Of a DNA stretch of 64,000 nucleotides, positions 34,975-51,279 are shown one piece after another (within the stretch, counting starts at the first letter, position 1; every line of letters starts with the position of its first letter). The stretch lies in assembly GCA_027028245.1 (NCBI GenBank), contig JALVJO010000038.1:17545-81544 (forward strand). Direction: 5' to 3'. Under the pieces are notes generated by a model. The model saw only the letters and a list, made by a program, of their open reading frames with translations, was not told where the DNA came from and did no database searches. The position numbers were made by a program, and so were the translations under genes. The DNA is from Deltaproteobacteria bacterium. Lineage in GTDB: Bacteria; Desulfobacterota; Dissulfuribacteria; Dissulfuribacterales; QOAL01.

Positions 34975-34990
34975 GCCGTCTCCATGCCTG

Positions 34991-35833
34991 CTATTTGACG
35001 ATACTGTGAGCCACACCGTGACACCTGCCGCAGGAACCGAATTTTTTGAACATGACAGAAGGATGAGGCTGGCCGTGGCATTGCCTGCACCTTTTTATGG
35101 TCTTGTGTTTGTCAGGATGACATCTCGTACAGGACAGGGCGGAATGTTTTGTTCGGCTTTTTTTCAGCATCTCGTAAGCCTTTCTGTGGCAGAGGGCACA
35201 ATCCTCTGGGGATCTTTCATTGGAATACCTGACATTCAGTGCCTTGTGAGCTTGATGACATGCCTTACAGCCGTCAAGCGAAGTCGCAACCGGTTTGAAA
35301 CCCGCCTTGACCAATACCACACCCTGATGAGGCTGGTGACATTCCAGGCATTCCGGAATGTAACCATGCCTGGTGTGGTGACAAACCGTGCAGTGAAACT
35401 CAGAATGCTTGGTGGTAAAGGTCATGACCTCTTTATACAGCTTTTGGTGGCAGACCCGGCACCCCTCTGCCAGATACAGGGTTGCCGGGATATCAAGGGG
35501 AGTGTGGGCCTCAGTGTGACAGCTGCTGCAATCTGTCAACTCTTTCCCGTGCGGATGCCCATGGCACCTGGAACACTTGGGTAAAATATCCTGATAATCT
35601 GTCTTCCCCGGTTTATAAACGTGAAATTTCCGGTGGCAGCTCCTGCATGCCACCCGTTTATGACCAGCCCCGTTTATCCTTAAAAGCTTTGCAATAATCG
35701 GATGACACCTCATACATTCCTGTCGTGTAAGCCTGTCAGGATGTGGAGGATAAAGCCCATCTGCCCAGACAAATCCTGCCCCTGCCAGGAAACACAGCCA
35801 AAGGATAAAGACTGCCTGCAGGTTCATGGACAT
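34991..35833 (-). CDS. Periplasmic dodecaheme c-type cytochrome
   Basis: Signal peptide; 12 CxxCH motifs counted. Confidence 0.93.
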   Translation of the reverse strand: MSMNLQAVFILWLCFLAGAGFVWADGLYPPHPDRLTRQECMRCHPIIAKLLRINGAGHKRVACRSCHRKFHVYKPGKTDYQDILPKCSRCHGHPHGKELTDCSSCHTEAHTPLDIPATLYLAEGCRVCHQKLYKEVMTFTTKHSEFHCTVCHHTRHGYIPECLECHQPHQGVVLVKAGFKPVATSLDGCKACHQAHKALNVRYSNERSPEDCALCHRKAYEMLKKSRTKHSALSCTRCHPDKHKTIKRCRQCHGQPHPSVMFKKFGSCGRCHGVAHSIVK

Positions 35834-37179
35834 GCTGCCCTTTTATCCATTCCGGGCACTAACAGTGCTCCCATGCATCTGTGATCAAAGGTCTTCAGAT
35901 ATGGTATATCCAGATACTTGCCGGCATCTACAGCCGGGGATGTGTCCAAAATGGAAAAATCATAATTGTCAGGATCAGAAAAACGCGGATCTGCCAGTAT
36001 ATCTCCGCGGCCTTCAGACGGACAACCACCGTACTGCATCCTCCTTGAAAGGAAGGCGTGGTCCCTGTCCCGGTTAAATTCCGGGATCTGGCCGTTTGCA
36101 AAAATAAGATTGCTGGAAAAGTTGCCGCAGCGGGTTACCAGAAGGCCTGTACGTATGTTGTAGACAATGATGTTATTTGCAATATCGGCCGTGGCATTGC
36201 TGTCAATTCTAACCCCTGCCCCTTCATTTCTGCTGCCGTTTGAAACTATGGTATTATGGTAAATATTAATGGGCCCTGGTGCGGAATAAGTATCCGTTGC
36301 GGAAAGACAGGCGATTCCCGATTCCAGGTTGTTGTAAATCCAGTTATTCATGATTCCCAGGGAACCTGTACAGCCTCCACGGATAAAAATGCCCGCCTTC
36401 TTGTTGAAAAAGATTCGGTTTTCAACCACGTCTACGACAGGAAAACCAGATGTCCTGCTTTGTCCGTAGACACCAGAAGTGCCGTTTGAGAAAATATCAT
36501 TTCCGGCTGCGGCCAGTCGTACTCGGCCTTCAACACGCAGGCCTGCCCTTGCATTTTCATGGATCTGATTCATTGAAGCGTATATATGCAGGCCACTATC
36601 AGAGGAGACTGCGGCATACAGGCCGGCCTGGCCGTTTAAGAATATATCGCTCTCTATTATCCCAACCGAGGTTTCCCAGAAGCTTTCTTGTTCAATCTTC
36701 CTGATTCGTATCCCAGCGCCCTGGTTGTTAAATATACCCAAGTGCCTGCAATCCAGTCTCAAAATATTCCTGGCATCCAAGCCTGCACGTTGATTTCCAT
36801 AAATTCTGGAGTTTTCCACGTAAACATTTGCATTTTTTTCAATTCTGATGCCCCCTCTGCCGTTTCCATAAATATCGCATTCTGTCACCCTTACAGGCAG
36901 GGAACCGCGAATTCTCACGCCGCTTCTGTTGTTTTCATATATTTCATTTTTTTCCATGACCGCCTTGAATATTCCGGGATCAGGCAAAAAATTCCCTGTC
37001 TTCATCTCCCTTTTCACACCATCGGTACTGGTGGAGCCTGCTGCAGGAAAAAAACTCTGGAACTGACGCTCCTGAAGACTGCAGCCGGAAACAGGAATCA
37101 GGGGCACCAGACACAGCAAAAGAATCAGGCGAAAGTTGCGTTTGGTGCTGCTGCTCGGCTGGCCTTTTTTCATATCCAT
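35824..37179 (-). CDS. Parallel beta-helix lipoprotein
   Basis: Lipobox VSGC, NxIxxNxxAGI repeats, and C-terminal ILADPRF...SPAVDAG. Confidence 0.82.
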   Translation of the reverse strand: MDMKKGQPSSSTKRNFRLILLLCLVPLIPVSGCSLQERQFQSFFPAAGSTSTDGVKREMKTGNFLPDPGIFKAVMEKNEIYENNRSGVRIRGSLPVRVTECDIYGNGRGGIRIEKNANVYVENSRIYGNQRAGLDARNILRLDCRHLGIFNNQGAGIRIRKIEQESFWETSVGIIESDIFLNGQAGLYAAVSSDSGLHIYASMNQIHENARAGLRVEGRVRLAAAGNDIFSNGTSGVYGQSRTSGFPVVDVVENRIFFNKKAGIFIRGGCTGSLGIMNNWIYNNLESGIACLSATDTYSAPGPINIYHNTIVSNGSRNEGAGVRIDSNATADIANNIIVYNIRTGLLVTRCGNFSSNLIFANGQIPEFNRDRDHAFLSRRMQYGGCPSEGRGDILADPRFSDPDNYDFSILDTSPAVDAGKYLDIPYLKTFDHRCMGALLVPGMDKRAACP

Positions 37180-37182
37180 TTG

Positions 37183-38628
37183 TTAAAAAAACCTCTTGGA
37201 CAGGCCTGCGTGTATGACATAATCTTCAATCCAGCCGTTCTCCTGTTTCACCAACGGAACCCTGCCGCCTATCTCAAGTTTCAGGCCTTCGGCTACAAAA
37301 AACTGGAGACAGGGGGAAATAAAGAGACTGTTTCCGCCTTTGTCGGTCACCCAGGTATCTACAGGCACAGGACCTCCCGGGAGCCGCTGGGGTGTTATGA
37401 CGTCCGGCCTTCCTTTCATTGCCAGGATGTGCTGCTTTCTTCTGACATGTCCCCGCCAACGGTAGTTGAATTCAAGATCTCCGTATACCGAAGGATTAAG
37501 GGGATACAGGAAGGCAGCTCCCATGTTGAATTCATCTCCGACATGCTGCCCGTTGGTAAACTTGTATGAAACGTTGATGTTTGTCTGGACTTTGTTCAGC
37601 TCTGTACTAAGGGCCAGTCCAGGCATGAAATCTACACTTCCGGAGCCCAGCGGAATCCAGCGCCAGACATCCTCCTGACGGACATCCTTGTCCTTGCCGA
37701 TAGCATTTTGATCTCCAGTGGGAATGGACAAAAGGTGAAAAAAGGCAAGATGAGTCTTTCTCTTGCCCCAAAGATGATATTTGGTGAAAAAAACAGTGTC
37801 GCCAAAGCCGGATACATTGAATTCTGCCTTTGCATCAGGGCCCGGCACCGACTCCAGATTCACATCCACTGTTTTCCAGAAATATTTCCCGATAATACCC
37901 ATGGTCAATTTGTCCGTCACCGCATACCGCATGCCCATAATCAAGGTCTTCACATGAACGCTGCGTTCTTCTGCCGGGTAGAACAACGGAGAGCCTTGCT
38001 CGTACATATCGTCGGCAATGGTTGCAGTCTGGTGCCAGAAACGGAACAATGTGTCAAAAAGAAGTTTTCCCCTGGGCATGGGAAAGGCACTGATTCGATT
38101 GAAGGACGGATTGGTAACCATCCTGTGGTAAGGAAGCAGGTTCAGATCGAAATTGTGCAGTCTTTTGTAAATGTATTGAAGATTATTCTGTGCTGCCCTG
38201 CAATCAGGAAAGCTTTCCAGGAGTTTCTCCAGCTGGCTGGCCGCTTCTTCCAGTTTTCCCTGCATCCGGTAGATTTCAGCCGTATTTAGCATGGAATCTA
38301 CCAGCAGCTGCTTTGAGCCCGGCTGAGACATGAGAAAATCGCTGGAAAGGATCTGGATCTTTACCTGTTCGAACTCTCTTCGGGCAAGCCCCAGCCGGCC
38401 CTGCTGCATGTGGATCTTTCCCAGCCTCAGCTTGGCTTCTACCAGAAGCGGACACAGGTCAAGGGCTTTTTCCAGGCAGTATGTCTGGCGGTGGACATCG
38501 TGAAATGAGGCGGTTGCCTCCTGCAGCCATTCCCAGGCCTTGTCGCAATCATCCGCTCGAAGCCCGCACGGGAAACTCCATTCCAATAAAATGGCCAGAA
38601 TTATTATTGTCTTTTCCAGACGTGACAT
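37183..38628 (-). CDS. TPR-containing outer-membrane beta-barrel (MetA-pathway 'transporter'-like)
   Basis: Signal peptide and N-terminal TPR-like helices. GFGD, SIPTG and LGSGS motifs, alternating beta strands, terminal Phe. Confidence 0.7.
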   Translation of the reverse strand: MSRLEKTIIILAILLEWSFPCGLRADDCDKAWEWLQEATASFHDVHRQTYCLEKALDLCPLLVEAKLRLGKIHMQQGRLGLARREFEQVKIQILSSDFLMSQPGSKQLLVDSMLNTAEIYRMQGKLEEAASQLEKLLESFPDCRAAQNNLQYIYKRLHNFDLNLLPYHRMVTNPSFNRISAFPMPRGKLLFDTLFRFWHQTATIADDMYEQGSPLFYPAEERSVHVKTLIMGMRYAVTDKLTMGIIGKYFWKTVDVNLESVPGPDAKAEFNVSGFGDTVFFTKYHLWGKRKTHLAFFHLLSIPTGDQNAIGKDKDVRQEDVWRWIPLGSGSVDFMPGLALSTELNKVQTNINVSYKFTNGQHVGDEFNMGAAFLYPLNPSVYGDLEFNYRWRGHVRRKQHILAMKGRPDVITPQRLPGGPVPVDTWVTDKGGNSLFISPCLQFFVAEGLKLEIGGRVPLVKQENGWIEDYVIHAGLSKRFF

Positions 38629-38637
38629 CTCCTTTAA

Positions 38638-39363
38638 TCAACTCTGCCTGCATATTGGACAGGATGGATTCCTGACAAGTTCCAGTTCCTGGAATTTCAT
38701 GGCCTCAAAATCCATGATTAACATCCGGCCGGAAAGTGCCATTTTCCTGCCGGAGAGAAACTTTAAGGCCTCCATGGCCTGCATACTGCCGGTGGCACTG
38801 GTTACTGCTCCAAGGACAGGGGTGCATTCGGATTCCGGTGCGGACGGAAACACACAAGAAATACAAGGGGTGTGGGGAGGCTGAAAGACTGCCACACGTC
38901 CTTCCATACCCCAGACAGCCCCGTGGATCATGGGAATCCCCTTTTTAAGGGCACACTGGCTCAATGCATAACGGGCCTCAAAGTTATCCAGGCAGTCTAT
39001 TATAATCTGGGCGTCGCCCACCAGTTCATTGACATTTTCAGAAGTGATCTTTTTATCGATTGTTTCGATTCCAGAGTCCGGGTTCAATCCCCTGAGGCAT
39101 TCTTTGGCAGAACTCGTCTTTTTGGCCCCTATATGAACATCCCTGTGAAGAAACTGACGATTAAGATTGGTTATGTCCACCATGTCAGAATCACATATCC
39201 TGATTATGCCTATTCCTGCAAGTGCCAGGTTGAGTGCTACTGGACAACCCAGTCCTCCTATCCCGGCAACAAAAACCCTGCTGTTCCTCAGCCTTACCTG
39301 GGTGTCAACCCCCCAGCCCTCCAGCAGGATCTGCCTGTTGTATCTATCAAATCTTTCCCTCAT
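38638..39363 (-). CDS. ThiF/MoeB/HesA E1-like adenylyltransferase (no rhodanese domain)
   Basis: RYNRQI, GIGGLG, DxDxVDxTNLNRQ, DCLDN, and two CxxC pairs (PCISC, SCPIC). Confidence 0.93.
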   Translation of the reverse strand: MRERFDRYNRQILLEGWGVDTQVRLRNSRVFVAGIGGLGCPVALNLALAGIGIIRICDSDMVDITNLNRQFLHRDVHIGAKKTSSAKECLRGLNPDSGIETIDKKITSENVNELVGDAQIIIDCLDNFEARYALSQCALKKGIPMIHGAVWGMEGRVAVFQPPHTPCISCVFPSAPESECTPVLGAVTSATGSMQAMEALKFLSGRKMALSGRMLIMDFEAMKFQELELVRNPSCPICRQS

Positions 39364-40803
39364 TTATGCGGCACTGCATGATCCATCTGGACTGGCCAAG
39401 GGACACAGCCTTTCAACTTCAACATCCTGCTCGCCTAGATCTTTTAAAACCTTTGCCGCAGCACCAGCTGCAAGTCTTTCTGAAAATCCAACATGGCTCT
39501 CCGGACTTATTATTGCCCTGATTTCCTCCTTGGAATATGAGCTGGCTATTCCCTCCTTTTTAAAGAGGATATCAAGAAATTCTCCCCTTTTTTCAGCAGC
39601 CTCCATGGCGGCTTCGTAAATCAACTGGTGGGCCCTGTCCTTCCCCATTTTTTCCCCGATATAAAACATCAAGGCCTCGCTGCATATCAGGGGTGCTGCA
39701 TTCTTAACATTATCACGGATCCTGTCCGTATGCACAACCAGCTCGTTCAAAATAAATTTCATTTGAGAAAGGGCAGAACAGGTATACTGGCATGAATCCG
39801 TTATGGCTGCCCATTCCACCCTGACAGCCCTGTAATCCCTCTCGTGTTCATTTATAAGGCACTCCATGCCCAGACCGGCTTGAGCCCTGACAAGCTTGGC
39901 AAGTACTGCCACCTGTTCGCACATTTCCGGGTTTCTCTTGTGGGGCATGGTACTGGAACCTATTTTACCATGGTGAAAAGGTTCTTCCATTTCACCCAGA
40001 CTGCTTCTGGAAAGCCCCCTTATTTCTTCAGCAATCTTGGCAAGGGTTCCACATATCAAAGCCAGCAAATTTAAAAATTCCGAAAAACGGTCCCTGGAGT
40101 TATGCCACGGAGTATCAGGCGGTTTTAGCTCCAGGCTGCGGGAGAACCTCTCCAACAGCTGCGGTGCCATTGGACCGAATGAATCCATGGTACCGACCCC
40201 TCCAAAGAGCTGGCTGACCAGGATTCTTTTTCTTGTCTCTTCCAGCCTTTCAAGGTGCCTGGCCAGCTCATCAAGCCATACGGCCATCTTGAGACCCAGT
40301 GTCATGGGAAGTGCATCCTGGGTGTGAGTACGTCCTACTGTTACCACGTCTTTGAAATGTTCCACCAAGGCAGCCAGCCGCCTCATTATAGAGACAAGAT
40401 CCCTGTGAACTATTAAAAGGACATCCCTGATCTCAAGAACCTGGGCGGTATCCTGGATATCCTGCGTAGTTGCCCCGTAGTGTATATATCCCCGGCTGGA
40501 CTTTCTGCATTTCACAGCCAGGGCGTTCAAGAGGGGCAGGAGGGAATGACTGGTACTCTCAAGCTCTCTTTTTACTGTCTCAAGATCCAGTTTTCTTATG
40601 TCTGCATTGGAGCTTATGTCACGGGCTGCACTGTCTGGAATAATGGCCAATGAGGCCTGAGTCACTGCCAATACGGCCTCGACATCAAGCCAGCGCTGAT
40701 ATCTGTATAAATCGCAAAAGATCCTCTTTACCTCAGGTGTTGCATATCCTCTGGAATAAAATCTTGAGTCTGTTATATGGCTTGCAGGACTGCACCTGGT
40801 CAT
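39364..40803 (-). CDS. Adenylosuccinate lyase/fumarase superfamily lyase B
   Basis: HYGATTQD, GRTH, GGVGT, signature GSSTMPHKRNP and HERD. Confidence 0.88.
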   Translation of the reverse strand: MTRCSPASHITDSRFYSRGYATPEVKRIFCDLYRYQRWLDVEAVLAVTQASLAIIPDSAARDISSNADIRKLDLETVKRELESTSHSLLPLLNALAVKCRKSSRGYIHYGATTQDIQDTAQVLEIRDVLLIVHRDLVSIMRRLAALVEHFKDVVTVGRTHTQDALPMTLGLKMAVWLDELARHLERLEETRKRILVSQLFGGVGTMDSFGPMAPQLLERFSRSLELKPPDTPWHNSRDRFSEFLNLLALICGTLAKIAEEIRGLSRSSLGEMEEPFHHGKIGSSTMPHKRNPEMCEQVAVLAKLVRAQAGLGMECLINEHERDYRAVRVEWAAITDSCQYTCSALSQMKFILNELVVHTDRIRDNVKNAAPLICSEALMFYIGEKMGKDRAHQLIYEAAMEAAEKRGEFLDILFKKEGIASSYSKEEIRAIISPESHVGFSERLAAGAAAKVLKDLGEQDVEVERLCPLASPDGSCSAA

Positions 40804-40874
40804 ATTCTTGGCCTTTGCACGTGGAAAAATGGTTTTAAATGTTTAAGGCAGCAGTCTGCCTCAATTGCAACAAA

Positions 40875-42248
40875 CTAAAGTTCCTGGGGGTCTTCAGCCC
40901 TTGATCTCCTGATTTGGCCTGCAACCTGGTTTATGATATTTACCGCCTGGCCCGTGTAGGCTTCGGGACTGTCCAGCATAAAAAGATCTCCTTTACTGAA
41001 AAGACCTCCTATCCCGGGATCTTCCATCACCAGCTCGCCAATGTTTCTGTCTTCTTTTTTTGCCTTTTCCACGATTTTGTTCAACTTTTCCATTGCATTC
41101 ATCTTGCCTATCTTTTCTCCCAGCCTGAAAAGAAGCCATTCCCCAGCTATAAAATCACCTTTAGATCTCAAGTTTTCGTACATTCGTTTAGTGTCTATTT
41201 CCAATGAGGACAAGATTGATTTCATATAAGAGGCAGCCGCACCTGTATAAATGCATATTTGAGGCATTGACAGCCATTCGGCCCACAAGCACCTTGGATC
41301 CCTTTCGTGTTCATGACACATGCTCTCTATTGCAACCGCAGAGAGAGCTCGAATGTGTTTTGAAAGTGCCTGAACCCTTTGACACAAAACGGGATTACGC
41401 TTGTGTGGCATGGTAGAACTTGCAGGCTGTCCCGGGGCCGCTTCAAAGAGTTCGGCGATCTCCGATTTCTGAAGTTGGTAAATCTCGTTTGCAATCTTTG
41501 AAAACGTGGAAGAAAGCATGGCCAGACAGCAGGCTGTATCCGCGATTGCATCGCGCCGCGTATGCCATGCCAATGGGTCATGCTCGAGGCCCAAAAGCCT
41601 CAATGTATGGCTTGCAATTTCAAGGGCGTTTTCTCCGAGAGCTGCAAGGGTCCCAACCGCACCGCCGAACTGACCATATCTAAGCCCGGAATGGCGATCT
41701 CTTATCCTATGGATATGGGACCTGATCTCCTTAAGCCAGACGGCAGTCTTGAGACCGAATGTGATTGGAAGGGCCTGCTGACCATGTGTTCTTCCTGCCA
41801 TGGGTGTGTCGGCGTACCGTTCTGAAAGAAGCAGGCAATTTGTTTCTATTTCTCGAAGATCCTTGTACATAAGTCCAAGGCTCAGGCGGATTCCAATGAT
41901 TTCAGCAGTATCAATGACGTCCTGGGTTGTGGCACCGTAATGAACATATTGTCCAGCCTCGCTGCTGCAGGCATGTCTCAAGGCCTGTAAGAGAGGGACC
42001 AAAGAATTCCGGCTTTTTCCATAACCTTTTCTGATTAAAGACTTATCCAACCGGTCAAAACGGGCATTTTCAACTATCTCCCGAGCTGCAGTCCCGGGGA
42101 TAATGCCCTTGTCTCCAAGGGTTGAAGCAAGCGCTGCTTCAAAATCAAGCCATCTCTGGAAAACAGCTTCTTCTTCGAATATCTCCCGTTGTTCCGGCGT
42201 ACTGAAAACATCCTGATTCAGGTGAAAATCAATCGGATGAACAGACAT
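40875..42248 (-). CDS. Adenylosuccinate lyase/fumarase superfamily lyase A
   Basis: HYGATTQD, GRTHGQQA, GAVGT, signature SSTMPHKRNP and HERD. Confidence 0.88.
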   Translation of the reverse strand: MSVHPIDFHLNQDVFSTPEQREIFEEEAVFQRWLDFEAALASTLGDKGIIPGTAAREIVENARFDRLDKSLIRKGYGKSRNSLVPLLQALRHACSSEAGQYVHYGATTQDVIDTAEIIGIRLSLGLMYKDLREIETNCLLLSERYADTPMAGRTHGQQALPITFGLKTAVWLKEIRSHIHRIRDRHSGLRYGQFGGAVGTLAALGENALEIASHTLRLLGLEHDPLAWHTRRDAIADTACCLAMLSSTFSKIANEIYQLQKSEIAELFEAAPGQPASSTMPHKRNPVLCQRVQALSKHIRALSAVAIESMCHEHERDPRCLWAEWLSMPQICIYTGAAASYMKSILSSLEIDTKRMYENLRSKGDFIAGEWLLFRLGEKIGKMNAMEKLNKIVEKAKKEDRNIGELVMEDPGIGGLFSKGDLFMLDSPEAYTGQAVNIINQVAGQIRRSRAEDPQEL

Positions 42249-42357
42249 GCTTAAGCCTCTTCCATAGGGTTAAAAACTGATCTTGATTCCATCTTACATG
42301 GAATCCCTGATATTAAGTAAGCGTCAGGATGCTCCCAAGGACAACATCGACTGCAGG

Positions 42358-42927
42358 TCAACTGATAATAATGGGGACCTCTTTTTCCCTAATGCCTTCA
42401 TAAAAGGCCCGAATAATCGGCCGTGATGGATCCACCAAGGAGATAATAAAGCTGAAAAGATTCGAATTTTTGGCCAGAATCATGTCCAGTTTGGTGGGCG
42501 TATCGCGCAGCCGATCATGATCCCATGGAACAATGTGCATGTGATAGGTGCCTATGGCAAGCAAATCATCTCTGTCGCATATTTCGTAACACTCCCTCAA
42601 TTCTTCAGGGTCGGTTATCCATCCCCTCTGGGAAAGCGGGGTCTTGGAGGCCACGGCATATCTGTTCATAACGTCATCCATATAGCTCTTAAGTGGCTCG
42701 TGCATCCTGGCATTTTTCTTAAAATAAAAAATTTTCAGTACATGAGCCGCGTCACCATCCAATGTCCCTGCAAGCATGCCATAGGCTCGTTTCACCCTGG
42801 TTTCACCCGGCAGATATTCTCCCGCCAGTTTTCTTCGGCAGTGCGACTTTACATCATCCCAGAGGGCCTCAGGGAGAAATATGTTTTTAAGACTTGATAA
42901 ACCTGTCACAGAATTCGACCTTGTCAA
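42358..42927 (-). CDS. Divergent JAB/MPN (Mov34) domain protein
   Basis: RAYGMLAG (compare EACGLLAG), IGTYHMH...TPTKLD (compare GxYHSH...PSxxD) and FIISL. Overlaps the ThiS-like gene by 4 nt. Confidence 0.6.
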   Translation of the reverse strand: MTRSNSVTGLSSLKNIFLPEALWDDVKSHCRRKLAGEYLPGETRVKRAYGMLAGTLDGDAAHVLKIFYFKKNARMHEPLKSYMDDVMNRYAVASKTPLSQRGWITDPEELRECYEICDRDDLLAIGTYHMHIVPWDHDRLRDTPTKLDMILAKNSNLFSFIISLVDPSRPIIRAFYEGIREKEVPIIIS

Positions 42928-43187
42928 CCCCCCGCTATGGGAATAATAAGAGAAATCTCATCGTCTTGTTTAAGACTTATCTGAGACCAGTCCTTTTGCT
43001 GGACCTTGACAAGTCTGCCGTTTACAAAGATGGAAAGAAGCTTAGGCTGCTCAAAGAGCACGTTTAGACCTTCATGCATCTGGACAAGTCTTTTCATGGT
43101 CCCTTCCAGGTCAGGGGCATCGATGACAATTTCTCGCTCGTTGTCAGTATATTTTCTATAAGGAAATGGAATTATAACGCGTGCCAT
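42924..43187 (-). CDS. MoaD/ThiS-family ubiquitin-like sulfur carrier
   Basis: 87 aa from ATG 43187; IFVNG, LKQDDEISLIIPIAGG-stop. Confidence 0.9.
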   Translation of the reverse strand: MARVIIPFPYRKYTDNEREIVIDAPDLEGTMKRLVQMHEGLNVLFEQPKLLSIFVNGRLVKVQQKDWSQISLKQDDEISLIIPIAGG

Positions 43188-43194
43188 GATATTC

Positions 43195-44058
43195 TTATCG
43201 TGATGATTCAAGCACTTCTGAAAGGGCCTGGGGAATATATGCCAGAATCTCCGAAATCTGCGTAGCAGGATTAGGTTGAGCAAGCTCTCCTGCTCTCCTG
43301 TTTGCCCTGCCTGCCACCATGCATGCCTCCACCGGAGTCTTTCCAGCGTAAATCAGGCCGCTGATCATGCCGGTGATAAGGTCCCCGGTACCTCCTACCG
43401 CCTCCATGGTTTCTACACATGGAGAATCGATTGTATCCACCACATTGCCGTCATGACAGATGTAATCCACTTTCCCCTTTACAAACATGGTCTTTGGCGC
43501 ATTTTTAGCCGCATAGGCCCGTTGAATCAGCTCCGTGACATTTTCTTCCATATGGAAAATAGCACCTCTGGTAAAAGCAGGATGGTCGGCCTTTTCATCA
43601 GCCAAAAAGGTCAGTTCTCCGATATCAGGTGTAAAAACATCGTAAAATACGGCATCTCCACCCGCCTTGGCCACATACATGGAACCGGCATCTGCTATGA
43701 GCACCGGTTTCCTGGGCATTTTTTTTACTGATTGCAGCACCCGTTTATTCAATTTCAAATCAGGCATTATGTAATGGAGGGTCATTACACTAAGCTGGAG
43801 AATGGGAAGATTTTCCTCGAGATATCGATAAATGGCCTCGCTTCCTTCCCTTTTTCCTATATCACCGGCTACAAGACCTACTGGTCTTTCACATCCCAAC
43901 AGCTCGCAAACCTGGCAGGCTGCAGTCATCATGGCTTCGTTGCCCCTGTTGATTCCAAGTTTTCTGCCGCCAATCTCAATACCTTCAGGAGAATAATCGA
44001 TGTGGCCCATGACAAGGGAAAGACCTTCCACGGGTACAGATCCTGCTAAAAGCAACAT
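43195..44058 (-). CDS. Ribokinase-fold protein (YjeF-C / NAD(P)HX dehydratase-like)
   Basis: LIADAG, FTPDIGEL, VKG..D and GGTGDLITG motifs. Confidence 0.75.
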   Translation of the reverse strand: MLLLAGSVPVEGLSLVMGHIDYSPEGIEIGGRKLGINRGNEAMMTAACQVCELLGCERPVGLVAGDIGKREGSEAIYRYLEENLPILQLSVMTLHYIMPDLKLNKRVLQSVKKMPRKPVLIADAGSMYVAKAGGDAVFYDVFTPDIGELTFLADEKADHPAFTRGAIFHMEENVTELIQRAYAAKNAPKTMFVKGKVDYICHDGNVVDTIDSPCVETMEAVGGTGDLITGMISGLIYAGKTPVEACMVAGRANRRAGELAQPNPATQISEILAYIPQALSEVLESSR

Positions 44059-44061
44059 CCG

Positions 44062-44607
44062 TCAGTCTCCTATGAGCCTGATCATTTCTTCTCTTGCCGT
44101 ATTGAGAGAATATGCGCAAAGGGAAAATCCTACTTCACCCGGGTCCGGGGCTTCGCGGAGCCTTTTGCCCAGCATGGACGTGGCAAGAAATGGGACATCC
44201 GGGCAACCACCTCCCGAAATATTAACGATTTCGCGGCTTTCCTTGTCCACGGTAATCTTCATGTTGGCTGCACGCACCATAAGATACCTGCCGAAATCCT
44301 TCACCCTGACGAACTGGAGGGGCTCGGTGCCCTTGGATGTTATGGGCACCACATCCATTGGTGGCAGTCCCACCCGGTGGAGAAGCTCAACTATTGCTGA
44401 TTCTGCATCAAAGGGAAACTCGACGCTCAAATCGCAGCCTGTTCTGTATGTGGGAGGCGGACTGACCACCCTTATGTCATACCCTTCGTCTCTTAAAAGC
44501 TCCTGAACCGAAATTACCGTTGTGGGATGCGCAAAAATCAGGAGTCCGCGGTCAGGCTTTCCTGTGTATTCTTTCTTTTTTTCTTTTTTCTTTTTAAACC
44601 AGAGCAT
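44062..44607 (-). CDS. DUF3343-domain protein (Cys-containing)
   Basis: PPPTYRTGCDL, NISGGGCPDVP and SLCAY motifs. Start at ATG 44607; the upstream part of the ORF overlaps yedE in another frame. Confidence 0.7.
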   Translation of the reverse strand: MLWFKKKKEKKKEYTGKPDRGLLIFAHPTTVISVQELLRDEGYDIRVVSPPPTYRTGCDLSVEFPFDAESAIVELLHRVGLPPMDVVPITSKGTEPLQFVRVKDFGRYLMVRAANMKITVDKESREIVNISGGGCPDVPFLATSMLGKRLREAPDPGEVGFSLCAYSLNTAREEMIRLIGD

Positions 44608-44654
44608 TATCACCTTACCCCTATAAATTTTTCCTAAAAACAGGTTATCTGGCA

Positions 44655-45731
44655 CTACCTGACAGCCGCTGGAGACCTCCGATAATACATGACTAAAACT
44701 ACACATGCCATGAGCCCTGCCAGCACGGCAATCTTTCCGTAAAAAGTCGGCCCTGCAGACGTTGATCTTATTGACCAACCAATGACCAAAGCCGCACCTG
44801 TGAGCATGCCAAAACACGTAACAGCCGAATCCACGTCCCCCTGGCCTGCCTTGATCACCTGTCTGAAGGGACAACCATCTATTATTACCGAGGCCAACCC
44901 TACCAGCATCATGGCTAAAAATGTCCACAGATGACTGGTATGAGAGGCGGGTTGACCGTTCAGACCCAGATGAAACTGTCCCAGCACAAGGCTGAGCACC
45001 AATGCCCCCAGAAACGCAGCCAGCACCCCCTTAAACAAGGTGCCCTCGCGAACAAGAAACAGGTTTCTGAAGCCACCGGTTATGCACAATCCTGAACGCT
45101 GTGCCAGACAGCCGATTACGAAGCTCACTGCCAGGGAGATAGGTACAGGTGCGTGCAGTGCGGCAGGACCAGTCTGGCCGAATACGATGAAGGCAGGCTT
45201 CATAAATAGGAAAAGAAGCAGGTTCAGGGCAAACAACGGAAAGATGTATCCGTTTATCTTGGGAAGCTTTCTCACTCTATCAAGGGCAACCCCGGCCTTT
45301 ATATACCTTGCCCCAAGCCATACACCAAGCATAAGACCCAGGAGGGCAGCGCAGGCCGTCAGGTCACCTGCAGCCAGCCGGTGAATCATCTTAATTGGGC
45401 ATCCTATAAACACCGCACAGCCCACTATCATAAAAAAACCCAGAAAAAAACGTATAATGGGAGAAGAGCCTCCAGTCACCTGAAAACGCCTTGTTGCCGT
45501 TGCCATGGCAAATGATCCAAGTACAAAACCGATCAATTCCGGCCTGAGATAGCTCATTCTGACATGAGAGTGAAGCTGCATGGCCCCGGCAAGGTTTTCC
45601 AGGAAACAGGAAAGACAGATACCTGAATTTACAGGGTTGCCCAGGTATGAAAGAACGACACAGCCGGCGCCAAGGACAGCACCGGTAATAATGGAAACGT
45701 CAAAGAAGCTCTTAAACACCTCTATTCGCAT
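44655..45731 (-). CDS. yedE: YedE/YeeE-family sulfur/selenium transporter (selenium-metabolism type)
   Basis: GNPxNxGICxxCF, YLRPEL.G, FIGCP, QRSGLC..GG and DGCPFRQ motifs; about 9-10 TMs. Confidence 0.85.
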   Translation of the reverse strand: MRIEVFKSFFDVSIITGAVLGAGCVVLSYLGNPVNSGICLSCFLENLAGAMQLHSHVRMSYLRPELIGFVLGSFAMATATRRFQVTGGSSPIIRFFLGFFMIVGCAVFIGCPIKMIHRLAAGDLTACAALLGLMLGVWLGARYIKAGVALDRVRKLPKINGYIFPLFALNLLLFLFMKPAFIVFGQTGPAALHAPVPISLAVSFVIGCLAQRSGLCITGGFRNLFLVREGTLFKGVLAAFLGALVLSLVLGQFHLGLNGQPASHTSHLWTFLAMMLVGLASVIIDGCPFRQVIKAGQGDVDSAVTCFGMLTGAALVIGWSIRSTSAGPTFYGKIAVLAGLMACVVLVMYYRRSPAAVR

Positions 45732-46285
45732 CCTCCGGCTATTCTGCGTTGAAGGTAGTAGATATCGTTTATGGCAGTTTGAATCTGTTTATCTTCAGGT
45801 TTCAGTTTTTTCTCCCTGTTCAGCTTTCCTCTGGCACTTGAAATCAGCTTCATTATTTCGTCACCTATATAGAGAGGCGTGGTCTTGTCAACGTAATCCG
45901 GATCCAATTCTACAGCGCGGCGATAGCTGCGGACTGACTTAACAATTTGTCCCTGCTGGCTGTAAAGCCTTCCAAGCAGTACAAGGCCGTAGGCATCATC
46001 GGGATGATCTTTTAGGATTTTTAAAACCTTGGAAACGGCCTGATCGAAATCCCCTTTTTTTTCAAGATAAAGGACATCCTTATAAAGCCAGGCCTTCTTG
46101 GCCAGCTGTTCTTCATATCTCTTCTGAAGGGTATTTATACCTGGTGAGCCGTGGCTAGAGTCGGCCTTCAATTCAAGCTCGTGCTGCACAATCATGCCGG
46201 CAGTAACAGCAACAAGCACAATCAGAACAGCAGTATTCACTCGGAAAAACCAATCCACCCCTTCATTCTCCATATGGTTCGCCAT
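45722..46285 (-). CDS. Membrane-anchored TPR protein with C-terminal -IAGGCE
   Basis: One N-terminal TM and TPR repeats (LLGRLY..YRRAVELDPDY). Overlaps the yedE start. Confidence 0.8.
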   Translation of the reverse strand: MANHMENEGVDWFFRVNTAVLIVLVAVTAGMIVQHELELKADSSHGSPGINTLQKRYEEQLAKKAWLYKDVLYLEKKGDFDQAVSKVLKILKDHPDDAYGLVLLGRLYSQQGQIVKSVRSYRRAVELDPDYVDKTTPLYIGDEIMKLISSARGKLNREKKLKPEDKQIQTAINDIYYLQRRIAGGCE

Positions 46286-46324: not shown

Positions 46325-47293
46325 CTAAAACCGTCCGGCTCCTGAAACGGGTTCATTGGCAAAGTTGCATATCCTGACTCGACCAAGGCCCTTATCACTG
46401 GATGCATCCTTGATGCTGCTTCTAATCTTTTTCAAATCAGTACTTCCCCACCAGTTATAGCGGGCATCAACATCCTGCTCCTGACCTTCCAAGAGGGAGA
46501 TGTTATAATCTGAGTTATCAAAGATATTGTTCTCTCTTAATATGAGCCGGGGGACGGAATACAAGATGATCCCTTTTGCGTTCTTGAAAATATTGTTGAA
46601 GCGGATGCAGCATGGACCGCTTTTCTTGGTAAAGATGCCGAAGAATTTATTTTCTGTGATTTGATTATGGGATATTATAGAATTGGCAGATCCCCCGATC
46701 AATATGCCGCCGCCATTTTGCCAGATCCTGTTGTAAACAACGGGTACAGCACATTTTATATCCATACCCCGTATATTTTTCATTCCTATGGCAACACCAT
46801 TGTCGTGCAGCCTGCAGCGGCTGACCAGCACCTGTGCTGAATGGCAGTGTATTGAGGTATGACCGTAACTGATGCTGCAAAACTCCAGGATATTGTCCCT
46901 GCTGCCGATGAAATTAATGGCTCCCCAGTCTGAGACAGACGGCCTTTTTTCAGCGCTGGTAAAGGTGATCATCTTGTCCCTTAATCCCTGGGCGATAAGT
47001 CTGCCCCTGACAATCAGTTCGGCCCTGGGGAAATGATTTGCCTTATCAAGACTGAGTTTATCAGGCCCGAAATCCTTAATCTTTTTAAATCTGATATTGG
47101 TCCCGGGAAGGATTATCAGAGTAGCCCCCCTGTTTATCCTCACATCCCCCTTCAGGAGGATGTCTCCCTGCCACACCGTGTCAGAAGTTATTTCCGTCTT
47201 GCTGTTTATTTCCTGGACTGCATAAGCTGGAGATGAATAAAGGAGAAAAAAAACATTCAGAACAAAGAAAAAGAATCTTGCCAGCTTTACCAT
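46325..47293 (-). CDS. Secreted parallel beta-helix protein
   Basis: Signal peptide; DTVWQG..GATLIILPGT, ITFTS...DWGAI and DARYNWWG motifs. Confidence 0.82.
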   Translation of the reverse strand: MVKLARFFFFVLNVFFLLYSSPAYAVQEINSKTEITSDTVWQGDILLKGDVRINRGATLIILPGTNIRFKKIKDFGPDKLSLDKANHFPRAELIVRGRLIAQGLRDKMITFTSAEKRPSVSDWGAINFIGSRDNILEFCSISYGHTSIHCHSAQVLVSRCRLHDNGVAIGMKNIRGMDIKCAVPVVYNRIWQNGGGILIGGSANSIISHNQITENKFFGIFTKKSGPCCIRFNNIFKNAKGIILYSVPRLILRENNIFDNSDYNISLLEGQEQDVDARYNWWGSTDLKKIRSSIKDASSDKGLGRVRICNFANEPVSGAGRF

Positions 47294-47823
47294 TAAGATC
47301 TCTCCGCTCCGGATTTGGTCAGCATCTTAATCTCGTCTTTTATCTTCTGCTTGTCTGCAGGCCCTTGGGCAAGGGTTTCAGCCCTGGAAAATTCCTGTTC
47401 AGCATCCACCTTCCTGCCCATTTTCTCAAAAACCACGGCCTTATGTACATGAACCAGGATATCAGAAGAATTTACCTTTTCTGCAATGTTGAAATATTGC
47501 ATTGCCTTTTCAAGGGCATTCTTTTTCATGAAGACCAGCCCGAGACCATCCAACGCATTGAAGTTACGGGAATCCTTTTTCAGAACCTTTTCGAATTGTT
47601 TCTGAGCTTCTTCCATCTGTCCTGCCAGCCAGTATGCCATGCCAAGCTTGTTCCTGGTTTCCAGGTCATCAGGGTTCATGAAAAGGACCATGTTGTACTG
47701 CAAAATCTGTACGGAAGGGGGGAACTTAGATATGTCACCGTGGGCAAACACCTGGGAGGGGCCGATACACATTGCAATACAGGCCAATATACAGACTGCA
47801 GCTTCAAAACATTTCATGGTCAT
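47293..47823 (-). CDS. Periplasmic TPR protein
   Basis: Signal ending VFA-HG; TPR repeats (RNKLGMAY, ALDGLGLVF). Confidence 0.82.
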   Translation of the reverse strand: MTMKCFEAAVCILACIAMCIGPSQVFAHGDISKFPPSVQILQYNMVLFMNPDDLETRNKLGMAYWLAGQMEEAQKQFEKVLKKDSRNFNALDGLGLVFMKKNALEKAMQYFNIAEKVNSSDILVHVHKAVVFEKMGRKVDAEQEFSRAETLAQGPADKQKIKDEIKMLTKSGAERS

Positions 47824-47874: not shown

Positions 47875-48807
47875 TCAATCTTTACGATATGGAGCCATAT
47901 TGCAGAGTTTCAGCCTATCGCGTATGGGGTCATATTCTTTATCTACGGCCTTGACGAAGCCGTCTATCCACATGCGCTTAAGCACCTTTAGTACCTCCCC
48001 GTCTACCAGGACTGTCTCATCCTTTTTCAAATTTAAAAGCAATTCCAAAACCTGTTCCTGAAGAACAGGATCAACCTGGGGCATGGCACCAATGGTGCAG
48101 TATGGCATGGGTATGCTCTCGGCTATAATGTTGAAATCCTGTTTGCGAACCTTATGTTCTTCAATCATTTGGTCCAGATCGATCCTGGGAGCCGCCCCCA
48201 CATCATATTTGCCAAAATAAACTCCATAAATCACCTTTTCATGCTTTGCAGAGCCCATGGGGATGGCATAAAGTGAAAAATCGATTTCCGGGTCAAATCC
48301 ATGCTTCAAAAGCATTGCATATTGGGCCATAAAGCCGAAGGGAGCCAGGGCAGGTCCGAAAATCATGCTCTTTCCCTTCATGTCCTTTATGGTCTTTATA
48401 CCGCTGTCTTTCAGCGAAATTATGGTTCCTGTTGACTTGTAGCCATTTCGTCCGCGAACATCTACTGCCAGAAGCTTCATGCCGAATCTCTTATTGAGCA
48501 TTATGGCGATTATGGAATTGACATGGACAAAATCCACCTTCTTTTGCTGGGCCAGATCTTCAAATTCGAACGTATTTGCCAGGACCATTTCGAATTTCCT
48601 GCCTGTCTTTTCAGAAAGATAGGCAGTAAGAGGAGCAAATCTTGCCCGGGACTGTTCCCGGCTGTCGCAAATCATGAAGCCTATGCGGACAGGTTTTTGA
48701 CTGGTGAACTTGGAGCCCTTATCTTCTTTGCTGCACCCAGAAAGGGCGAAAATAAAAACACCTAAAATTATTGTTATTGCCTTGATATATATATTATTGG
48801 GATCCAT
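47875..48807 (-). CDS. PhnD-like substrate-binding lipoprotein (orphan)
   Basis: Lipobox LSGC; RFAPLTAYLSEKTG, SGIKTIKDMKGK and HEKVIYGV..G.YDVG motifs. No ABC permease or ATPase nearby. Confidence 0.82.
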   Translation of the reverse strand: MDPNNIYIKAITIILGVFIFALSGCSKEDKGSKFTSQKPVRIGFMICDSREQSRARFAPLTAYLSEKTGRKFEMVLANTFEFEDLAQQKKVDFVHVNSIIAIMLNKRFGMKLLAVDVRGRNGYKSTGTIISLKDSGIKTIKDMKGKSMIFGPALAPFGFMAQYAMLLKHGFDPEIDFSLYAIPMGSAKHEKVIYGVYFGKYDVGAAPRIDLDQMIEEHKVRKQDFNIIAESIPMPYCTIGAMPQVDPVLQEQVLELLLNLKKDETVLVDGEVLKVLKRMWIDGFVKAVDKEYDPIRDRLKLCNMAPYRKD

Positions 48808-49148: not shown

Positions 49149-49766
49149 TTAAATCAGGTTTCTCTGTTTGAGAAATTTTTTGATGGCAGCTTTATCTTTG
49201 CCTGAATCAGAACTTTGCACCAGCTCTTTTAAGACGGCATCGTCTATCTTGCCGCTCAACTTGTTTATCACCCTGTCGAGTACTGGAAACTTATTAAGGA
49301 CCTTTCTGGTAATGACTGCTGCTGCCAGAGAATCTTGGTCAGAGTCTGATTGCAGGTACTGATCAACGGGTCCATGATAACCAAAAGGCCTAAGCCATAT
49401 CATGGAATAATTATGTATAAAATACTGCTTTACCAGTGAATAGGTCTCCTGGGCAGTATTACCCTGCCTTATCCCGGGAATGGCTGAACTGGCAGGTCCT
49501 GTATAGCTGATGAATATATCCGCATCCCCCCTCTTAACCATATCCTGGCATTCATGGATATCTGAGCACGATTTCAGATTCACCGTGGTACCAGTTCTTT
49601 CATTTATGAAAACTGCAAGAACATTGCCTACAGTCTGCTGATCAGGAGATGAATCTACAGCCAGATTCAATATTCGGCCTACACACGAAATAGCCGAATC
49701 GCAAATTATAAATTGCAAAAATATTATAGTAATGAAGATAAAGAAGAATTCTGTCCTTTTCATCAT
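49149..49766 (-). CDS. Truncated OpuAC/glycine-betaine-like periplasmic binding protein
   Basis: RBS AGGAGG; signal then CVGR; DIFISYTG, WLRPFG and KFPVL..VINKLSGKI motifs. Short for a full SBP. Confidence 0.6.
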   Translation of the reverse strand: MMKRTEFFFIFITIIFLQFIICDSAISCVGRILNLAVDSSPDQQTVGNVLAVFINERTGTTVNLKSCSDIHECQDMVKRGDADIFISYTGPASSAIPGIRQGNTAQETYSLVKQYFIHNYSMIWLRPFGYHGPVDQYLQSDSDQDSLAAAVITRKVLNKFPVLDRVINKLSGKIDDAVLKELVQSSDSGKDKAAIKKFLKQRNLI

Positions 49767-49905
49767 GAAAGCCTCCTGATCTGTCATATCAATAAAATTC
49801 AAAGTTGGATGCGCTTATAAAAAACCTTATTAGCTGAATTGTCCAAGAAAAATTGGATCTTTGTTTAGGTTTCTCTATCAAAGTATTTTAAGGCTGCATG
49901 GGATT

Positions 49906-51279
49906 TCATATCATATCCAGAAGTTTCCACCACAGAAAATCAAGTGGGAACAGGACAACCACGGTGATGCCGGCCATGATAAGACAAATCCTCGTGGCAT
50001 GGGAAAATTTCTCCCCTGCCAGCTGCATTCCTACCACTATGGGAGGGGCTTGGTAAGGAAAGAGTACGGTTGAAAAGCCCAGCACCTGGATGTTTAGAAT
50101 GCTCGTAACAGGTATTCCTGCAGCCTTTGAAAGGGTTTCAGAAAACTGCGTGAATACTGCCGGCATTGCAGGCAATGTGGTTGCAACTCCTGTGGCTGTT
50201 GCTGCAACGCTTAGGGATAAATAATTTGAAAAATCATGCCCTGGTTTAAGGGGCAGCATTCCTAAAATCCTGTGTGCCAGGGCCTGGCCCGTACCCGAGC
50301 TGCTAATAAGCGAGCCCATTCCAAGAATTCCCGCCACAAAAATGATGGAAGCCCAGTTGATATCCCTGCTGAACCTCTTGCTGTCAAATACGGCCACGCC
50401 TGGAAACATGAGGAACACTGCTCCTGCCAGGGCAACCCATGCAGGAGATACATGATGCAGGAAATCTGACATCCACAGAAGGAGTAGTACGAACAAAGTA
50501 ACGGTCAGCAGCCTCTCATCACGCGAAAGAGGCGGGATTCCACGGGTTTTGTTGTTCTTGACCTGCACCGGCCTGTCCGGGAAGAGCCAGACAATTAAAA
50601 GCACTATCAACAACCCCTTTAATAAGCCCAGGACAGGAAAATGAAGCAGGAGGTAGGGTCCATAAAGCAGGCTTTCATGAAACAGGTTTTCAGATACGCC
50701 GATTAAAACCATGTTGGGTACATTGGCAGGCAGAACGGCAAAGGCCGGCAGAAATGAACCCAGAATGACTGCCAGGACAATACCGGTACGCCCCCTGCGT
50801 CCCTTTTGAAATCCGAAAAAATCGGCAACAGCCAGGGATATGGGCACAAGCAGCACCACCCTGCTCATTGCAGAGGGCATCAGAAAGCTGAAAAAAACGC
50901 TGCCTGCCACCAAACCGGCAATGATCTTCACGTATGAGCCGTGCAGGTGCTGCGCAATGAACTTTCCCAGTCGCCTGCCCAGCCCGGTAGTGGTTATGGC
51001 AGAGCCTATAACAAGACCTCCAAAGATCAGCCAAACAGCCGAGGAGGCAAATCCTGAAAATACAACTTCAGGCCTTGCAAGAGAAAACACAAGGCATACA
51101 ACAAAAAAACAAAGGGCGGTTATGTGCTGGGGGATTATTCCAGTTGCCCAAAAAGAGATTGAAAGAAGGCAGACCGCAGCTATTTTTTCCTGGCTGCCGG
51201 AGAAAAAAGAGGGCTGAAAAATCAATATAAAGATAGAAGCTGCTATGGCCGCACCCAGGACGGCTGGCTTTAATTTCAT
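49906..51279 (-). CDS. SLC13/DASS family permease (dicarboxylate/sulfate)
   Basis: FWATG..P, FSGF, LMPSA..R, PANVPN and LFPYQAPP motifs. Confidence 0.85.
   Translation of the reverse strand: MKLKPAVLGAAIAASIFILIFQPSFFSGSQEKIAAVCLLSISFWATGIIPQHITALCFFVVCLVFSLARPEVVFSGFASSAVWLIFGGLVIGSAITTTGLGRRLGKFIAQHLHGSYVKIIAGLVAGSVFFSFLMPSAMSRVVLLVPISLAVADFFGFQKGRRGRTGIVLAVILGSFLPAFAVLPANVPNMVLIGVSENLFHESLLYGPYLLLHFPVLGLLKGLLIVLLIVWLFPDRPVQVKNNKTRGIPPLSRDERLLTVTLFVLLLLWMSDFLHHVSPAWVALAGAVFLMFPGVAVFDSKRFSRDINWASIIFVAGILGMGSLISSSGTGQALAHRILGMLPLKPGHDFSNYLSLSVAATATGVATTLPAMPAVFTQFSETLSKAAGIPVTSILNIQVLGFSTVLFPYQAPPIVVGMQLAGEKFSHATRICLIMAGITVVVLFPLDFLWWKLLDMI

Follow-up and report, generated by a model that had tools for sequence, protein, structure and literature searches.

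How substrates are presented on the periplasmic side to YeeE/YedE channels, which move sulfur and probably selenium species, is the question raised by a small gene that lies directly ahead of yedE in a 64,000-nucleotide (nt) stretch of DNA, hereafter the window, from a Deltaproteobacteria bacterium of the Dissulfuribacterales (assembly GCA_027028245.1, contig JALVJO010000038.1, positions 17,545 to 81,544). The gene encodes a tetratricopeptide repeat (TPR) protein whose single Cys is residue 186 of 187, on a C-terminal Gly-Cys-Glu tail. A sequence-only reading of the window had described a membrane-anchored protein with a SoxY-like GGC tail that overlaps yedE by 10 nt, and had proposed either a swinging-arm carrier feeding YedE or a cryptic -GG terminus. 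Our analysis showed that the tail Cys is present in every relative recovered and that the gene goes with yedE wherever enough sequence is available. The explanation that we favor is that the TPR gene product serves a divergent YedE channel as a small accessory subunit.

A word-indexed protein search gave 47 relatives of the TPR protein at an E value of ≤3.9e-30, with 37 to 96% identity. Relatives were added from genome contigs (28 loci) and metagenome contigs (43 loci), 71 loci altogether, and the pooled loci and proteins comprised 103 distinct TPR-family sequences (individual loci and genomes are cited below by L and G numbers). The penultimate Cys was found in 103 out of 103 of these sequences, the ending -GCE in 102, and -GGCE in 96. 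A terminal Cys that varies among orthologs, the weak point named in the sequence-only reading, was therefore not seen. The GG was replaced by EG, QG, or GS in seven relatives, and of the claimed GGC tail the Cys thus holds as a strict feature and the GG does not. The variant endings were AEGCE, GQGCE, LLGGCE, and AGSCG, with AGSCE in one more genome (L082); L080 and L082, two additional variants, likewise have the penultimate Cys. No other Cys occurred within the last 110 residues in 99 of the 103 relatives, and within the tail only the Cys is strictly invariant. In a 48-row alignment of the family with a mean column identity of 53%, residues Y177, L178, Q179, R181, G184, G185, C186, and E187 were unchanged in all 48 proteins. 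The tail is the most conserved part of the TPR family, and its conservation is evidently not due to chance. A profile search of 1.84 billion representatives was dominated by giant TPR proteins, with about 12 single-stretch, full-length clusters corresponding to the TPR family, and the ten extra 50%-identity cluster representatives that it contributed all end in GCE.

The DNA encoding the tail varies far more freely. Among 58 distinct tail DNAs, the Cys codon was TGT in 41 and TGC in 17, the Glu codon was GAA in 41 and GAG in 16, the Gly codons used GGA, GGG, GGT, and GGC, and all three stop codons occurred. Synonymous codons vary while the residues stay, and selection therefore acts on the tail peptide. 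An alternation of Cys with selenocysteine (Sec), which the sequence-only reading had suggested looking for, was not found, as there was no TGA at the tail Cys codon in the 71 loci and the window (58 distinct tails). Some unusual loci were also encountered. L068 to L071 represent a distant variant of the module, with the tail GQGCE and a second Cys in the sequence YFCQR; in L068 and L071 a conserved protein of 402 to 410 amino acids (aa) with a Cys-rich, zinc-ribbon-like start is encoded 3′ of yedE, and the sequences of L069 and L070 stop short of this point. L052 (911-1507), the sole locus with the AEGCE tail, has ∼600 nt between the TPR stop codon and yedE compared to the usual 0 to 4 nt.

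The coupling to yedE is equally tight. yedE is the next gene in 67 of the 71 loci, and the remaining four have no more than 271 nt of downstream sequence. In the 58 loci with a yedE open reading frame (ORF), the first yedE start codon lies 0 nt from the TPR stop codon in 33 and at −1 nt in 9. The longest yedE ORF in the window starts at ATG 45731, which directly adjoins the GGAGG run at 45736-45732 with no spacer in between, and GTG 45719 is 2 nt past the TAG of the TPR gene. G-rich GGN GGN codons are found in nearly all TPR relatives. In the closest relatives, L001 and L003, yedE starts with a GTG that is 3 nt past the stop codon (VLKRFLDIS and VFKRFLDIS), and this aligns with GTG 45719 of the window (.FKSFFDVS). 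Because the yedE starts of the relatives abut the TPR stop codon and the N termini of L001 and L003 align with GTG 45719, this GTG is probably the true start, and the 10-nt overlap is then an artefact of taking the longest ORF. This means that the tight coupling described earlier stands, whereas the overlap itself exists only if yedE starts at ATG 45731; the two genes probably abut with a 2-nt gap and are translationally coupled rather than overlapping.

The same association was apparent when 401 evenly sampled genomes of the phylum were scanned. TPR-family matches at an E value of ≤1e-10 were obtained in 12 genomes, but the match in G252 was rejected as an unrelated 585-aa TPR lipoprotein, and the count is therefore 11 out of 401. 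A YedE of family TIGR04112 occurred in 165 of the 401 genomes and in 11 out of 11 genomes with the TPR family, each of which has one copy except for G063, which has two. The two genes were adjacent by coordinates in 9 of the 11 genomes and are also adjacent in G164, where a 458-aa open frame looked like a TPR-YedE fusion; this candidate was discarded, since it consists of a normal stop codon followed by a GTG in high-GC DNA. We conclude that the pairing of the TPR family with yedE is, as judged from these genomes and loci, an obligate one, in line with the YedE link proposed in the sequence-only reading. The YedE matches in the 11 genomes score 333 to 414 bits, near the bottom of the family (top score, 517), and the TPR-linked YedE copies may therefore form a divergent subclade. 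Five Cys residues of YedE (C39, C42, C111, C216, and C287 in the numbering of the 358-aa ORF) were unchanged in 49 of 49 sequences. The loci are assigned to sulfur-cycling lineages, namely Desulfobulbia including cable bacteria, Desulfocapsa, Thermodesulfatator-like bacteria, and Deferrisomatales. In two loci, a Desulfocapsa metagenome-assembled genome (L017:3064-4283) and Candidatus Electrothrix aarhusensis (L022:7517-8580), yedE is broken into two ORFs, either through a frameshift or through a mistake in the assembly, behind an intact TPR gene.

The architecture of the TPR protein agrees with the description of a membrane-anchored TPR protein. TPR repeats were detected above the Pfam cut-offs (TPR_2, 33.0 bits compared to a cut-off of 27; TPR_1, 29.9 bits compared to 27.8), and there is one N-terminal hydrophobic segment. 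The AlphaFold2 model built on the family alignment (predicted local distance difference test [pLDDT], 86) is all-helical, with a long N-terminal helix (residues 5 to 42) that takes in the hydrophobic segment, a linker at residues 42 to 48 of low confidence, and TPR helices up to residue 182. The last five residues form a coil beyond the final TPR helix, as assigned by DSSP on this model. A Foldseek search of the PDB with the model returned only generic, consensus, or designed TPRs (best E value, 2e-4 and above) and gave no functional lead. The library scans contained no specific Pfam or NCBIfam model for the family, and the matches in the ESM Atlas were unnamed TPR clusters, from Thermodesulfobacteriota only. 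The ORF has three candidate starts, ATG 46285, ATG 46273, and GTG 46258. As most relatives are 178 aa long and begin with MDW, the true start is likely, but not certainly, GTG 46258, which gives a 178-aa protein beginning with MDWFF.

Which side of the membrane the TPR domain faces was less straightforward. The charges flanking the hydrophobic segment, as family means, are +1.1/−1.3 on the N-terminal side and +1.5/−2.0 on the C-terminal side, and the positive-inside rule was abandoned as a guide to the topology because these charges are too balanced to decide. Other features favor the periplasm. Lys or Arg directly precedes the hydrophobic segment across the family, as in export signals. Three genes 5′ of the TPR gene encode proteins with signal peptides or lipoprotein signals. 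In L028 and L080, the most divergent homologs, a classical cleavable signal peptide (an R/D-rich n-region, a hydrophobic stretch, and VEA|R) replaces the long anchor. Because the upstream partners are exported, Lys or Arg precedes the segment, and these two homologs have signal peptides, the hydrophobic segment is quite probably a signal anchor with its N terminus inside and with the TPR domain and the tail in the periplasm.

The complex of YedE and the TPR protein was modelled, as had been suggested in the sequence-only reading, and scored 0.57 (0.57, 0.58, and 0.54 in the individual runs) compared to 0.01 for the best of three controls. The contacts are reproduced from run to run to at least 64%, and the pLDDT of the partner is at least 74. 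In the benchmark, 116 of 157 solved complexes and 2 of 215 mismatched pairs passed the mark; of these, just 18 of the 157 solved complexes, but both of the mismatches, did so with scores of ≤0.60. These counts apply here only roughly because the alignments were own-built. The model weakly suggests that the TPR protein may bind YedE, adding a little to the link made by gene order, and it does not give the placement of the tail.

Table 1. Positions in the window of the TPR gene, yedE, and the neighboring features
Feature	Position	Strand	Basis or remark
TPR protein with C-terminal Cys tail	45722..46285	(-)	Longest ORF, 187 aa; ends YYLQRRIAGGCE, then TAG
Tail Y176-E187, YYLQRRIAGGCE	45725..45760	(-)	Cys186 codon, 45728-45730
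N-terminal hydrophobic segment, residues 16-34	46184..46240	(-)	Mean Kyte-Doolittle 2.12; sole such segment
GGAGG from two Gly codons	45732..45736	(-)	Likely Shine-Dalgarno site of yedE
YedE-family channel	44655..45719	(-)	TIGR04112, 394.2 bits (NCBIfam cut-off 200), E 4.6e-118; longest ORF from ATG 45731
NosD-like right-handed beta-helix protein, signal peptide	46325..47293	(-)	PF05048 and PF13229, both 1.1e-13
Second TPR protein, signal peptide	47293..47823	(-)	Mature part without Cys
PhnD-family substrate-binding lipoprotein, lipobox LSGC	47875..48807	(-)	PF12974, 1.1e-49
OpuAC-like small exported protein, probably lipoprotein	49149..49802	(-)	C40 (after signal) in 30/30; conserved neighbor
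DASS/CitMHS-type permease	49906..51279	(-)	Conserved neighbor
DUF3343 (Se/S carrier-like) domain fused to second domain without family match	44062..44640	(-)	PF11823, 6.5e-13
Block of YjeF_C-like, ThiS-like, JAMM/MPN, two adenylosuccinate-lyase-family enzymes, and ThiF	38638..44058	(-)	Family scans; JAMM by fold
ThiS-like protein, four genes 3′ of TPR gene	42924..43283	(-)	Ends IPIAGG
JAMM-fold protein ("JAB")	42358..42927	(-)	AlphaFold2 pLDDT 89.2; P. furiosus JAMM1 5ld9, E 5.9e-8
ThiF	38638..39363	(-)	PF00899, 3e-71

The genes upstream of the TPR gene encode exported proteins (Table 1), some of which are nearly constant companions. Among 26 close genome loci, 24 have the NosD-like gene directly 5′ of the TPR gene and 22 have the gene for the PhnD-family substrate-binding protein (SBP), with contig ends accounting for the exceptions. 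C139 of the NosD-like protein is present in 37 of 38 homologs. Besides the lipobox Cys (C25, in 39 of 40 homologs), the SBP has two Cys residues, C47 (FMICDS) and C237 (PYCTIG), that are present in 40 out of 40. Its nearest solved structures are ArrX (E value, 6e-11) and HtxB. The S-x-S oxyanion motif of ArrX is gone in the SBP (ALAPFG compared to MSFSGH); the phmmer alignment with ArrX begins past Cys47 and is ambiguous at Cys237. The two invariant Cys residues and the missing S-x-S motif therefore suggest that the SBP may bind its ligand through thiols rather than as an oxyanion. In the distant variants L068 to L071 and in L082, the flank covered contains neither the NosD-like gene nor the gene for the second TPR protein, and SBP, TPR, and YedE are kept where the flank allows. 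The minimal set common to all variants thus appears to be SBP, TPR, and YedE. The DASS/CitMHS permease and the OpuAC-like protein recur 5′ of the module in the distant relatives L004, L021, L025, and L068 to L071.

On the other side of yedE lies a block of cytoplasmic proteins. The DUF3343 fusion has three Cys residues, C69, C146 (in a GGGCP motif), and C175, that are present in 28 of 28 homologs, and it is likely the cytoplasmic acceptor below YedE. The ThiS-like protein ends in PIAGG in 26 of 26 distinct homologs. This confirms the likeness between its end and the TPR tail that had been pointed out, and the most plausible view of the common IAGG is that both ends are flexible and rich in Gly. 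The JAMM-fold protein matched no Pfam or NCBIfam model in the library scans; however, its AlphaFold2 model matches JAMM/MPN structures and H129, H131, and D142 are invariant, which bears out the earlier JAB label. The best matches of the two lyases are the adenylosuccinate lyase model and the XcbD model of the coenzyme M pathway, below the cut-off (400 and 479 bits compared to 600). The block as a whole looks like a pathway for a sulfur- or selenium-containing small molecule. A DUF3343-to-JAMM block is found 3′ of yedE in 17 loci. In seven loci with several kilobases of flank (five of them from Electrothrix), the DUF3343/YjeF_C-like/JAMM block is absent after yedE and the tail is kept. Directly after ThiF in the window, at 33964-38628 on the (-) strand, are genes for a protein with TPRs and an outer-membrane barrel-like part (Phenol_MetA_deg), a second NosD-like beta-helix protein, a multiheme cytochrome c, and an Lcl_C-domain protein.

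The proposed SoxY likeness holds at the level of function at most. In both proteins, a Gly-rich C-terminal peptide would present a Cys to the periplasm; the TPR tail has its Cys in all relatives and the preceding GG in most, and its periplasmic location is the probable one argued above. The SoxY fold is a beta-sandwich and its motif is GGCGG compared to G-C-E in the TPR tail, whereas the TPR protein is all-alpha, carries a membrane anchor, and is not homologous to SoxY. Family scans of 21 neighboring proteins found no SoxZ, SoxAX, SoxB, or other Sox family. Like the TPR protein, DsrC and TusE have Cys as the penultimate residue of a flexible C terminus, but they are cytoplasmic and have another fold, the TPR protein has a single Cys, and there is no Pfam or NCBIfam similarity. 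The DsrC arm bears a second conserved Cys.

Among proteins that work with YeeE-type channels, the closest parallel is YeeD/TsuB, a small Cys-bearing partner that, in the available text of PMC11582611 and PMC11073785, is encoded beside the YeeE/TsuA thiosulfate channel and needed with it. YeeD, however, is soluble and cytoplasmic and has the TusA fold, whereas the TPR protein is anchored, probably periplasmic, and gave no TusA or SirA family match in the Pfam and NCBIfam scans; the cytoplasmic counterpart of YeeD is more likely the DUF3343 fusion. Another parallel concerns the neighboring SBP, not the TPR protein itself. The PhnD-family protein AioX has arsenite linked to Cys106 according to the accessible part of PMC5908839, and thus sets an example of capture by a thiol in proteins with this fold. 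Compared to AioX and ArrX, which are of the same family, the SBP has two invariant Cys residues, has lost the S-x-S motif, and has a channel rather than a sensor kinase as its partner. TPR chaperones of the CcmH/CycH type share the N-terminal anchor and the periplasmic TPR domain, but the match to PF23914 (24.8 bits) is under the cut-off of 42 and there are no cytochrome maturation genes alongside. To our knowledge, proteins of this type have no invariant C-terminal Cys tail.

What, then, would the tail do? The reading that we put forward tentatively, at a little short of an even chance, is that a membrane-tethered periplasmic thiol arm feeds the Cys ladder of YedE. The N-terminal helix would anchor the TPR protein in the cytoplasmic membrane, with the short variable linker and the compact TPR domain facing the periplasm, and the A-G-G-C-E tail would be flexible and offer one thiol beside two carboxylates. 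The chalcogen (selenium or sulfane sulfur) would first be captured by the Cys-bearing SBP, perhaps aided by the NosD-like protein and the second TPR protein, and then be handed over to the tail Cys. By extending into the outer funnel of YedE, the tail would serve as the final periplasmic stop in a thiol relay, from which the chalcogen would pass along the five invariant Cys residues of YedE to the cytoplasmic Cys-rich DUF3343 fusion. A similar step has been considered elsewhere: the available sections of PMC11582611 regard it as conceivable that the SoxY Cys hands its cargo on along the Cys residues of SoxT, a channel of the YeeE/YedE family. The wider proposal that these proteins are the outer half of a complete, hitherto undescribed Cys-relay importer for a chalcogen, running from SBP through the TPR Gly-Cys-Glu arm, YedE, and the DUF3343 fusion to the ThiS/ThiF/JAMM and lyase pathway, is possible but doubtful. 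Speculatively, Gly-Cys-Glu with a free C terminus, having one thiol and two carboxylates, resembles glutathione read backwards, which would suit the capture of selenite-type species.

Several points weigh against such an arm. Covalent carriage of sulfur or selenium on the tail Cys is purely what we infer, and no adduct is known. The same sections of PMC11582611 doubt direct Cys-to-Cys transfer in YeeE-type channels, where the Cys residues are ∼7 Å apart. In YeeE, as described in the available part of PMC7449682, thiosulfate sits beside C293 in a positively charged periplasmic indentation with three Cys residues in line, and these residues are proposed to hydrogen-bond thiosulfate, not to bind it covalently. 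The complex score lies in a weak band and comes without an interface, so that the contact could be made by the tail, the transmembrane helix, or the TPR body. The flank charges are nearly balanced, which leaves the orientation in the Desulfobulbia-type members dependent on the gene context and two distant homologs. The GG codons are probably also the ribosome-binding site of yedE, and this second role may contribute to the conservation of the GG. Finally, the role of YedE itself in selenium transport is unproven.

The doubt over the ∼7-Å Cys spacing applies here too, and for this reason the main rival is a noncovalent one, in which the tail, with its thiol and two carboxylates, acts as a gate or mimics the substrate by plugging or priming the anion-binding outer funnel of YedE and the Cys only hydrogen-bonds. 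The SBP would dock onto the TPR body, and the TPR protein would thus be an adaptor through which YedE comes to depend on a binding protein. This is unlikely. The minimal set of SBP, TPR, and YedE, seen without a NosD-like or second TPR gene alongside in L068 to L071 and L082, would fit it, as would the S-H-S hydrogen bonds proposed for the Cys residues of YeeE and its positively charged funnel (PMC7449682, in the part available) and the complex score, weak but above its controls. If the tail were purely a steric or electrostatic plug, Ser or Asp should be acceptable in place of the Cys, yet only Cys was found at this position, and the two invariant Cys residues of the SBP fit thiol chemistry better. 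Still less probable is a structural or metal-binding role without any cargo, where the tail Cys, the Glu, and the terminal carboxylate ligate a metal delivered by the NosD-like protein or where the Cys forms a disulfide with the SBP or the NosD-like protein. The nearly constant position of the NosD-like gene directly 5′ of the TPR gene, the conservation of its C139, the annotation of PF05048 NosD proteins as periplasmic copper-binding, and the invariant Cys residues of the SBP would all suit such a role. However, the tail is equally unchanged in L068 to L071 and L082, where the flank covered has no NosD-like gene, and the constant neighbors are only SBP and YedE. Stable disulfides in the periplasm are also less to be expected in these hosts, which are anaerobes.

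Two further explanations have very little left in their favor. The cryptic-terminus idea of the sequence-only reading holds that the JAMM protein trims Cys-Glu and bares -IAGG for activation by ThiF, as for sulfur carriers of the QbsE/QbsD type, which are made with residues after the GG and are trimmed by a JAMM protease. The TPR tail does resemble these in having AGG followed by two residues starting with Cys, and the operon does contain a ThiS-like protein with the same IAGG, a strong ThiF match, and a JAMM fold. But unlike the QbsE/QbsD-type and ThiS/MoaD-type carriers, the TPR protein is not a beta-grasp protein and its GG, replaced in seven relatives and in L082, is not invariant; the TPR domain is likely exported, in another compartment than the cytoplasmic ThiF and JAMM proteins; and the tail is kept in the seven loci that have no JAMM/DUF3343 block after yedE. 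We regard it as very improbable. Least probable of all is that the tail is kept merely at the nucleotide level, as the ribosome-binding site or translational coupling of yedE, with a functionless peptide. The GGN GGN codons do give GGAGG-like runs ∼10 nt ahead of the yedE start, but the third positions are free while the residues are fixed, the conservation reaches at least 12 residues further upstream, and the tail is kept where yedE is ∼300 nt (L068) or ∼600 nt (L052) away.

Whether the cargo is sulfur or selenium is undecided. For selenium, the YedE subfamily TIGR04112 is named putative selenium transporter and the window YedE is the sole YedE of its genome; DUF3343 is tied to selenium genes in the accessible text of PMC5322559 and bioRxiv 10.1101/2022.04.13.486033; and the SelD gene of the host, which lies outside the window at G000:C120:23164-24087, has one in-frame TGA, which makes SelD a selenoprotein and means that the host decodes Sec. 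For sulfur, the loci come from sulfur-cycling lineages and a ThiS/ThiF/JAMM system follows 3′ in the operon. A Sec-type SelD was found in 11 out of 11 genomes with the module, but as SelD occurs in 366 of the 401 sampled genomes, this co-occurrence does not discriminate between the two. In Methanococcus maripaludis, as far as the available part of PMC11097638 goes, yedE mRNA goes up on selenium starvation and a deletion had no clear phenotype.

Literature searches, with supplements outside their scope, found no TPR, NosD-like, or PhnD-like partner of YedE, and the part available of a 2015 comparative-genomics paper on YedE mentions neither TPR nor NosD proteins. SoxY and DsrC are precedents for a C-terminal Cys arm; within the reach of these searches, what is new is the TPR scaffold, its obligate coupling to YedE, and the SBP with its Cys residues. 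The TPR family thus offers an experimental handle on how substrates are presented to YeeE/YedE channels, an invariant Cys on an accessible tail that is always encoded with the channel, flanked by an SBP with two invariant Cys residues on one side and by a Cys-rich cytoplasmic acceptor on the other. In the sulfur-cycling lineages that carry the TPR loci, the movement of sulfur across the membrane is a related question. If the wider importer proposal is true, it would show how YedE channels get loaded from outside, and with selenium as the cargo it would be the first dedicated route of selenium import that depends on a binding protein.

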